From: Mobula hypostoma
Lineage: Eukaryota
Assembly (NCBI RefSeq): GCF_963921235.1
Contig: NC_086108.1
Coordinates: forward strand, 12,710,001 to 12,774,000
Length of the DNA stretch: 64,000 nt
Reading direction: 5' to 3'
Part shown: piece by piece, positions 7,801 to 10,800 of the stretch
How positions within the stretch are numbered: the stretch's first letter is position 1
Layout: each line of letters opens with the position of its first letter
Notes under the pieces: generated by a model
Told to the model about the DNA's origin: nothing
What the model saw: only the letters and a program-made list of their open reading frames with translations
Databases searched by the model: none
Program-made: the position numbers and the translations under genes

Positions 7801-10800
7801 CTCCTGTACTCCAGGGAATACAGCCCAAGAGCTGCCAGACGTTCCTCATATGGTAACCCTTTCATTCCTGGAATTATTCTCGTGAATCTTCTCTGAGCCC
7901 TCTGTAATGTCAGTATATTGTTTCTAAAATAAGGAGCCCATAACTGCACATAATACTCCCAAGTGTGGTCTCATGAGTGCCTCATAGAGCCTCAACATCA
8001 CATCCCTGCTCTTACATTCTATACCTCTAGAAATGAATGCCAACATTGCATTCGCCTTCTTCACCACTGATGCAACCCAGAGGTTAATATTTAGGGTATC
8101 CTGCACAAGGACTCTCAAGTTCCTTTGCATCTCTGCATTTTGAATTCTCTCCCCATCTAAATAATAGTCTGCCCATTTATTTCTTCCACCAAAGTGCATG
8201 ACCATACACTTTCCAACATTGTATTTCATTTACCACTTCTTTGCCAATTCCCCTAAATTATTCAAGTCTCCCTGCAGGCTACCTGTTTCCTCAACACTAC
8301 CCGCTCCTCCACCTATCTTTGTATCATCAGCAAATTTAGGCACAAATCCATTAATCCCATAGTCCAAATCATTGACATACGTCGTAAAAAGCAGCGGTTC
8401 CAATACTGACCCCTGTGGAGCTCCACTGGTAACTGGCAGGCAGCCAGAGTAGGATCCCTTTAGTAATTCCTCCGTCTCCACCGCATCTGCTCTCAGGATG
8501 AGGCTTTTCATTCTAGGACGAGGGAGATGTCTTCCTTTTTTAAAGAAAGGGGCTTCCCTTCCTCCACTATCAACTCTGCTCTTAAACGCATCTCCCCCAT
8601 TTCATGCACATCTGCTCTCACTCCATCCTCCCGCCACCCCACTAGGAATAGGGTTCCCCTGGTCCTCACCTACCACCCCACCAGCCTCCGGGTCCAACAT
8701 ATTATTCTCCGTAACTTCTGCCACCTCCAACGGGATCCCACCACTAAGCACATCTTTCCCTCCCCCCCACTCTGCATTCCGCAGGGATTGCTCCCTATGC
8801 AACTCTCTTGTCCATTCGTCCCCCCCATCCCTCCCCACTGATCTCCCTCCTGGCACTTATCCGTGTAAGCGGAACAAGTGCTACACATGCCCTTACACTT
8901 CCTCCCTTACCACCATTCAGGGCCCCAAACAGTCCTTCCAGGTGATGCAACATTTCACCTGTGAGTCGGCTGGGGTGATATACTGCGTCCGGTGCTCCCG
9001 ATGTGACCTTTTATATATTGGCGAGACCCGACGCAGACTGGGAGACTGCTTTGCTGAACATCTACCCTCTGTCCGCCAGAGAAAGCAGGATCTCCCAGTG
9101 GCCACACATTTTAATTCCACATCCCATTCCCATTCTGACATGTCTATCCACAGCCTCCTCTACTGTAAAGATGAAGCCACACTCAGGTTGGAGGAACAAC
9201 ACCTTATATTCCGTCTGGGTAGCCTCCAACCTGATGGCATGAACATCGACTTCTCTAACTTCCGCTAAGGCCCCACCTCCCCCTCGTACCCCATCTGTTA
9301 CTTATTTTTATACACACATTCTTTCTCTCACTCTCCTTTTTCTCCCTCTGTCCCTCTGAATATACCTCTTGCCCATCCTCTGGGTCCCCCCCCCCTTGTC
9401 TTTCTTCCCGGACCTCCTGTCCCATGATCCTCTCGTATCCCCTTTTGCCTATCACCTGTCCAGCTCTTGGCTCCATCCCTCCCCCTCCTGTCTTCTCCTA
9501 TCATTTTGGATCTCCCCCTCCCCCTCCAACTTCCAAATCCCTTACTCACTCTTCCTTCAGTTAGTCCTGACGAAGGGTCTCGGCCTGAAACGTCGACTGC
9601 ACCTCTTCCTAGAGATGCTGCCTGGCCTGCTGCGTTCACCAGCAACTTTTATGTGTGTTGCTAGTATCCCTTTATTCCCACTCTCTGTTTTCTGCCGGTC
9701 AGCCAATGCTCCACCCATGCAAGTAACTTCCCTGTAATTCCATGCGCTCTTATCTTGCTAAGCAGCCTCATGTGCGGCACCTTGTCAAAGGACTTTTGAA
9801 AATCCTAGTACAGCACATCTACTGCATCTCTTTTATCTACCCTGCTTGAAATTTCCTCAAAAAAATTGCAGTAGGTTAGTCAGGCAGAATTTGTCTTTCA
9901 GGAAACCATGCTGGCTTGGGCCTATCTTGTCATGTGGCTCCAGGTACTCCGTAATCTCATCCCTAACAATTGATTCCAACAACTTCCCAATGAGGTTAAC
10001 AGGTCTATAGTTTCCTTTCTGCTGCCTCCCACCCTTTTAAATAGCGGAGTAACATTTGCAACTTTCCAGTCATCCAGTACAATGCCAGAATCTATCAATT
10101 CTTGAAAGATCATTGTTAATGCCTGTGCAATCTCTCCAGCTACTTCCTTCAGAGCCAGAGGGTGCATTCCATCAGGTCCAGGAGATTTATTCATCCTCAG
10201 ACCATTAAGCTTTCTGAGCACCTTCTCAGTAGTAATTTTCACTACACCTACTTCACTTCCATGACACTCTTGAGTGTCTGGTATACTGCAGATGTCTTCA
10301 ACTGTGAAGACTGATGCAAAACACGCACTCAGTTCCTTTGCCATCTCTGCATCTCTCATTACAATATCTGGCAGGGCTGGTAGGTGAATTATGGACTGGA
10401 GAGGGGTAAAGGTTTATCCAGGGCTGGTGAAGGCTGGTGGGGAGAGGGAAGGTAAAGGTGCAGCTGGAGACCAGAGAGTGATAAGCGAGAACAGAAAGGT
10501 TAGGAGTGCTGGAATATGTTCAAAGTTCAAAGTATATTTATTATCAATGAATGTATACGTTATACAACCTTGAGATTCTTCTCCCACAGGCAGCCTCGAA
10601 ACAAAGGAACCCAAAAGCACCCATAAAAAAGATCGTCAAACAGACAGTGCGCAGAAAAAATAACAAATCATGCAAACAATAAACACATGCAAATAGTATT
10701 CTGAACTGAAGTCCACAGAAAGTATGTCCCCAGACACTTAGTTCAGCACAGAGCCAAGCAGCGAGCTGATCCGCCCCTTCTCTCACCTTGGGCCCTGAAA

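Follow-up and report, generated by a model that had tools for sequence, protein, structure and literature searches.

Does a 36-base stretch inside ERCC2 of the ray Mobula hypostoma, which has the layout of a minimal hammerhead ribozyme, endow an essential repair gene with a self-cleaving site, or is it a passenger of the mobile element around it? The window analyzed here, to which all coordinates refer, is the whole stretch of 64,000 nucleotides at positions 12,710,001 to 12,774,000 of contig NC_086108.1 (forward strand). Having observed the element, its target-site duplication, its sense orientation, the very high copy number of the motif, and spliced mRNA of the host gene, we interpret the motif as the hammerhead that sits in the terminal repeat of a Penelope-like retrotransposon, a truncated copy of which inserted into ERCC2 intron 3; very probably it is an inert passenger that is spliced out uncut. 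In the element from which it derives, the motif would cleave that element's tandem RNA after the GUC triplet, either paired through ACGU or helped by an element protein. Splicing would far outpace cleavage by the lone ERCC2 copy, since this copy lacks a stem III and a nearby partner, has G-U at 10.1/11.1, and is predicted to have its core paired with its flank.

Read directly from the + strand, the motif opens with one side of stem I (9563 to 9566, pairing with 9595 to 9598), followed by the core CUGACGA (9567 to 9573), one extra A (9574), stem II (9575 to 9578 with 9583 to 9586; two of its four pairs, including 10.1/11.1, are G-U), GAAA (9587 to 9590), and the palindrome ACGU (9590 to 9593) in place of stem III. 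The GUC triplet spans 9592 to 9594, so that C17 is 9594 and the predicted cut falls after it. Position 10.1/11.1 is occupied by a G9575-U9586 wobble in place of the highly conserved G10.1-C11.1 pair. The letters thus supply CUGANGA, GAAA, and an NUH cut site, and the topology is that of type I, with a helix I within the usual 4 to 5 bp and a helix II; both stems are predicted at 0.65 to 0.95 in the isolated 36-mer and are predicted to be lost in longer context.

The preliminary description had given this sequence and hammerhead layout, and its letters stand as written; its assignment to the Penelope type of minimal type I hammerhead, with palindromic ACGU for stem III, was likewise correct and agrees with the element anatomy (see below). 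It had also called the ribozyme intact, which holds for the core letters but for neither an Rfam match nor the fold compared with shuffles. The model search that it proposed recovered nothing: the Rfam hammerhead models gave 0 matches at gathering scores in the full window and none at E values of up to 10 over 9400 to 9750. Two weak Rfam matches in the latter region lie on the opposite strand below their own gathering scores and were dismissed. The isolated 36-mer is no more stable than its shuffles (z = -0.37). With no Rfam match and this z score, the case for a hammerhead rests on anatomy and family and not on folding energy.

Table 1. Features of the window around the motif and across ERCC2 (exon and intron numbers count a short, unmapped first exon)
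Feature	Position	Strand	Remarks
ERCC2/XPD exon 3	4775..4852	+	Protein mapping, spliced contigs
ERCC2/XPD intron 3	4853-11988	+	7,136 bases, GT-AG, spliced contigs
Older LINE interrupted by the Penelope-like element	7924..10413, ends approximate	-	ORF pieces, weak RVT_1 match
Left target-site duplication, 13 bp	8450..8462
5'-truncated Penelope-like element	8463..9661	+	1.2 kb: ORF end, 3' untranslated part, terminal repeat; without the optional ~35-nt tail
Broken ORF end, two frames	8467..9268	+	C-x4-C-x2-C linker, then GIY-YIG endonuclease with CCHH residues; stop 9266-9268
Predicted rival hairpin	9548..9578	+	Predicted pairing of 9548-9554 with 9572-9578 and of 9557-9560 with 9567-9570; catalytic core paired up
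Minimal type I hammerhead motif	9563..9598	+	Letters read directly; architecture as described in PMC4209133
Right target-site duplication, 13 bp	9662..9674		1 mismatch relative to the left one
ERCC2/XPD exon 4	11989..12051	+	Protein mapping, spliced contigs
ERCC2/XPD exon 5	12822..12935	+	Human XPD match, protein mapping, spliced contigs
Ten further decayed terminal-repeat hammerhead copies in the gene	12093, 16516, 20323, 22677, 23052, 32524, 43611, 48890, 49211, 55648	both

The motif lies 295 bases past the endonuclease stop and 63 bases ahead of the element end, which places it in the terminal repeat. The element interrupts an older LINE, which we take to be CR1-like and both halves of which align end to end on another locus (L023). 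The endonuclease ORF of the window is 94% identical to a ray protein. A Pfam search with the window's own endonuclease frames recovered 0 families for both of the two frames; sister copies gave weak matches to RVT_1 (E = 2.4e-05) and GIY-YIG (E = 0.0024), in different copies and both below the cut-off. A reverse transcriptase (RT) was found in the inverted 5' part of the sister copy L052, and inversions are present in L052, L058, and L060. The linker in the window frame 8453-9268 fits the C-x2-5-C-x-x-C form given for Neptune and Nematis EN+ elements (Craig et al. 2021, 10.1101/2021.04.23.441226), with which the family shares the linker, endonuclease, tail, and inversion traits described there, the ERCC2 copy keeping the last 1.2 kb only. 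By this linker motif rather than by an RT tree, the element appears to be an EN+ Penelope-like element of the Neptune or Nematis type. An optional tail (30 to 40 bp expected, ~35 here) is present in many sister copies and missing from that in ERCC2. The site does not have the form of a non-LTR retrozyme: it holds a single copy attached to coding sequence and no tandem array.

The closest sampled sister copies are ~96% identical to the element, and long open frames are kept among them. Relative to the majority of 13 close relatives, 34 of 1197 columns hold differences private to the ERCC2 copy (2.8% of sites), a divergence at which a 36-base stretch escapes all changes with a P of 0.35. Since the insertion is young and an untouched stretch of this length is to be expected at that probability, the intactness of the motif needs no selection. 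Downstream of the hammerhead, one locus (L004:1536-1645) and nine related ones share an 8-bp stem that is conserved and has its 3' strand inside the optional tail. This stem, in which compensatory change was seen in 0 of 16 pairs, may be a priming or protein-binding site; the ERCC2 copy is without the 3' strand because it stops before the tail.

Exon 5 of the host gene matches residues 83 to 120 of human XPD (E = 1e-13); ranked by identity, the nearest full-length proteins are ray proteins named XPD (95%). A ray XPD protein maps in order, throughout on the + strand, starting 2.9 kb before the window and stopping 13.4 kb past its end (77,405 in window coordinates), a mapped span of 80 kb. Contigs from all four runs analyzed contain the exon 3-exon 4 joint with GT-AG boundaries and have zero mismatches across three exons. 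These joints and the + strand mapping of XPD define intron 3 and put the motif in sense within it, just where the preliminary description had it. The four runs belong to one study and are RNA by conjecture, their contigs show neither RNA ends nor levels, and their source animals may be without the ERCC2 insertion. No piece listed spans either insertion junction.

The central 34 bases of the motif were found identical 36,060 times in the 3.48-Gb ray genome; as the reversed pattern gives 0 control matches, a chance origin is excluded. The count rises to 45,476 when two places may vary, and a core-only pattern with a 13-base spacer gives 101,427 matches versus 124 for its controls. The ray genome holds ~100,000 minimal hammerhead cores. 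Assuming an even spread, an 80-kb span would contain one or more identical sense copies with a probability of 0.34 and a core match with a probability of 0.69; with 36,060 occurrences of the 34 bases, sense copies in long genes are to be expected. ERCC2 itself has 4 copies in sense and 6 in antisense. Of its three other sense copies with up to 11 mismatches, one has an intact core, at 55648. As candidate partners in cis they were all rejected, the cores at 12093 and 22677 being broken and that at 55648 lying 46 kb downstream.

Such motifs have been defined in metazoan Penelope elements (Cervera and De la Peña 2014, PMC4209133). As described there, they have in common with the ray motif the type I topology, a helix I of 4 to 5 bp, an extra base between positions 9 and 10.1, and a helix III reduced to a palindrome at 15.1-16.1, and they occur mostly as solitary copies from truncated elements, in thousands per genome. 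Helix II is 4 bp in the ray and 7 to 8 bp in the Schistosoma families, and the G10.1-C11.1 pair, a consensus trait outside the descriptor of that paper, is G-U in the dominant ray subfamily. The 101,427 core matches are about 10 times the 4,000 of the coelacanth and the 9,000 of Xenopus reported there, counts from another search method to be compared with those of a large genome. Our literature search, with subscription journals and repeat libraries outside its scope, recovered no paper on minimal Penelope hammerheads in rays.

The preliminary description had regarded a lack of covariation in stems I and II across genomic copies, together with a lack of cleavage, as evidence against a ribozyme, and on covariation the answer is divided. 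Within the motif's own family it is absent (0 of 8 stem pairs, over 24 distinct rows out of 31), which is what the decay of copies from a single master should produce; in other repeat families of the genome that bear hammerheads it is present. A core pattern with a 19-base spacer gives 644 matches versus 116 for controls, and 14 of 15 such loci, chosen without regard to their stems, were aligned, the omitted one being an internal duplication of the main family. Both-side changes occur in 5 of their 10 pairs. None of 500 shuffles attained their covariation score, which relatedness inflates, and slid controls scored lower. The search for an endonuclease beside these loci yielded none but one weak match in one locus; we infer a Penelope origin for them. 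L217 to L231 include several rarer repeat families with the same minimal core, a 6-bp stem II, and compensatory changes, two of these loci (L228 and L229) forming a tandem pair 120 bases apart.

The wobble at 10.1/11.1 is widely shared: T occupies 11.1 in 36,060 of 43,136 otherwise identical copies, C is kept in sister subfamilies, and U11.1 is found in 18 of 18 sampled copies of the subgroup of the ERCC2 copy and its nearest sister. CpG decay was considered as its source and rejected: decay should strike both strands alike, and the first 100 matches listed comprise 79 CCTG, 15 CCCG, and 2 CCCA. In old copies decay is roughly symmetrical (40 TG and 23 CA of 91). Because the majority of copies carry U11.1 and the opposite-strand decay product is rare, U11.1 is, judging by these sequences, a master trait of the subfamily.

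A G-U pair at 10.1/11.1 would be expected to slow hammerhead cleavage. The G10.1-C11.1 pair is simply called conserved, or is retained, in published accounts of hammerheads (PMC2837043, PMC544870). In the predicted fold of the motif without flanks, core and cut site pair with each other (0.96). With at least 30 bases of flank, both hammerhead stems are predicted to fall to ~0. Pairing of the core with the upstream flank is predicted at 0.82, as high as in 1 of 100 shuffled flanks; across 32 young copies the predicted mean core-flank pairing is 0.47 versus 0.22. A slid stem II using A9574-U9586 was discarded, being predicted to be 1.4 kcal/mol weaker. For two copies together, a one-sided dimer hammerhead is predicted at -8.8 kcal/mol, the two monomers at -20.0, and a non-catalytic dimer at -28.3, values that omit tertiary terms and the second stem I. 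All these are nearest-neighbour equilibrium folds, which ignore tertiary contacts, co-transcriptional folding, and proteins.

In the work that defined the minimal Penelope hammerheads, a single copy gave no detectable cleavage and dimers had low activity (PMC4209133). For PAc, a Poseidon element of the green anole, the hammerhead cut only with added protein, and no RNA reads were reported to start or end at its cut site (PMC11167929). PAc resembles the ray family in having a terminal-repeat hammerhead with stems I and II and an optional tail; it differs in that Poseidon is described as being without the linker zinc finger and in that PAc has its start codon at stem II, where the ERCC2 copy has none. 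Cleavage of ERCC2 RNA by the motif is thus unlikely on the predicted folds and on analogy, because it has no real stem III, no near intact partner, a G-U at 10.1/11.1, and a core hidden in the predicted fold and because minimal Penelope hammerheads described so far either fail to cut alone or depend on the element's protein; spliced exon 3-exon 4 contigs are also present in all four runs. The preliminary description's further inference, a potential self-cleaving site carried by an essential repair gene, does not find support as a site of any consequence, given that its 34 central bases recur 36,060 times in the genome, no intact sense partner is near, and the core is predicted to pair with the upstream flank.

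We further examined the strand of copies in three large genes found by laminin-G matches, each on one strand, whose first domains confirmed them as neurexins; neurexins are not housekeeping genes. The scan covered 1.2 Mb inside the three spans and counted copies with up to 11 mismatches. All copies number 76 in sense and 80 in antisense; the intact ones number 16 and 13, respectively (sense share, 95% interval of 0.36 to 0.74), with 0 in the reversed-sequence control. An opposite-strand copy lies within 3 kb of 23 of the 29 intact copies, and inverted pairs of this kind weaken the test because they push the ratio towards 1:1. The 6 remaining intact copies are 2 in sense and 4 in antisense, or 7 versus 8 with a 1.5-kb limit. 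Strong sense depletion of intact copies was thus not seen in these introns, counts that are compatible with mild depletion, and the introns apparently tolerate intact copies in sense. One neurexin gene has, antisense to it, two intact hammerheads in tandem, 277 bases apart (L205:1520-1832), possibly a natural dimer.

The inert reading has to be weighed against the facts that all core letters are intact and that the anole motif is active with protein (PMC11167929). These facts favor, if anything, a copy that is silent alone but cut in trans with element protein or partner RNA, e.g., in germ cells, trimming some ERCC2 pre-mRNA. Family RNA abundant in the four runs, if these are RNA, and the long open frames of sister copies would provide for such help, and the protein assistance of the anole hammerhead offers a precedent (PMC11167929). 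Nevertheless, we consider this unlikely: the ERCC2 copy lacks the 3' strand of the downstream 8-bp stem (whose protein-binding role is itself a guess), no strand bias was detected in neurexin introns, even in the anole no reads were reported at the cut site (PMC11167929), and the predicted dimer hammerhead is far weaker than two monomers or the non-catalytic dimer. A domesticated intronic ribozyme regulating ERCC2 is highly improbable. Intronic hammerheads are on record in the amniote genes RECK, CTCL, and DTNB (PMC6155905), and, like them, the ray motif is of type I and lies in sense in a host intron; its core is intact. However, those are of canonical type and conserved across species, whereas the ray motif is minimal, unmatched by the Rfam hammerhead models, devoid of stem III, and part of a young, full-anatomy insertion of very high copy number, in which intactness is expected by chance and the central 34 bases are identical to those of 36,059 other copies.

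That the motif is no ribozyme at all and merely resembles one, being a signal that the element conserves in its DNA or RNA (a promoter, protein-binding, or priming site), is scarcely credible. The lack of compensatory change within its family (0 of 8 pairs) would fit such a signal, as would the report that hammerhead mutations were without effect on insertion of the anole element in vitro (PMC11167929). Against it stand the covariation among the 19-base-spacer loci (5 of 10 pairs, 0 of 500 shuffles, relatedness inflating the score) and the additional base that follows the core together with the palindromic ACGU, both of which fit the published consensus (PMC4209133). A bolder reading concerns the subfamily: U11.1, C7, and the upstream hairpin together suggest, as a hypothesis, that the ribozyme is damped in the lineage that has been most successful. 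In its full form, the most prolific young subfamily would have a switched-off hammerhead, with U11.1 fixed in the master, C7 pairing the core with the cut site, and the upstream hairpin hiding the core; this safety catch would have allowed tens of thousands of copies to settle in introns, and protein made by the element would release it in trans, so that an element burst would cut many host pre-mRNAs, including that of ERCC2. We regard this chain as decidedly unlikely, and the damping idea is tempered by old copies from other families, of which 9 of 14 also have G-U at 10.1/11.1 and for which weak stems are predicted too.

Two published results also weigh against the inert reading. An intronic hammerhead is able to knock down a fish gene, an engineered fast one having lowered mRNA 13- to 20-fold, though natural-type ones gave less than 3-fold (PMC11856399). 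Tandem hammerhead repeats (retrozymes) are depleted in frog introns according to a 2026 preprint, which also covers one cartilaginous fish (10.64898/2026.07.22.740005). The ERCC2 motif matters little in itself, since both motif and retrotransposon class have been described before and its copies number in the tens of thousands. The value lies at the level of the family, with ~100,000 minimal cores in the ray genome and apparently tolerated intact sense copies in introns: if it were true that element protein activates copies in trans, the ray would have transcriptome-wide inducible intron cut sites, and the in vivo role of Penelope hammerheads would become testable at scale.

Several further observations concern the repeats of the family and the host gene. 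Many copies form back-to-back inverted pairs from <100 bases to ~2.5 kb apart (L001, L025, L058, and L060), which, if transcribed, would form double-stranded RNA. ERCC2 intron 5 contains a G-rich tandem array (13107-15858; 28-bp unit, 98.6 copies) with strong GC skew, in which two stretches 1,227 bases apart translate identically, suggesting an internal duplication. A near full-length LINE, presumably L1/Tx1-like, lies in sense in an ERCC2 intron at 26018-31086, with a first frame of 385 codons and a broken second frame. Antisense to the gene, a 582-codon open frame at 49971-51719 belongs to a young LINE that we take to be CR1-like, and a 165-codon minus-strand frame at 49370-49867 may be a retroelement fragment.
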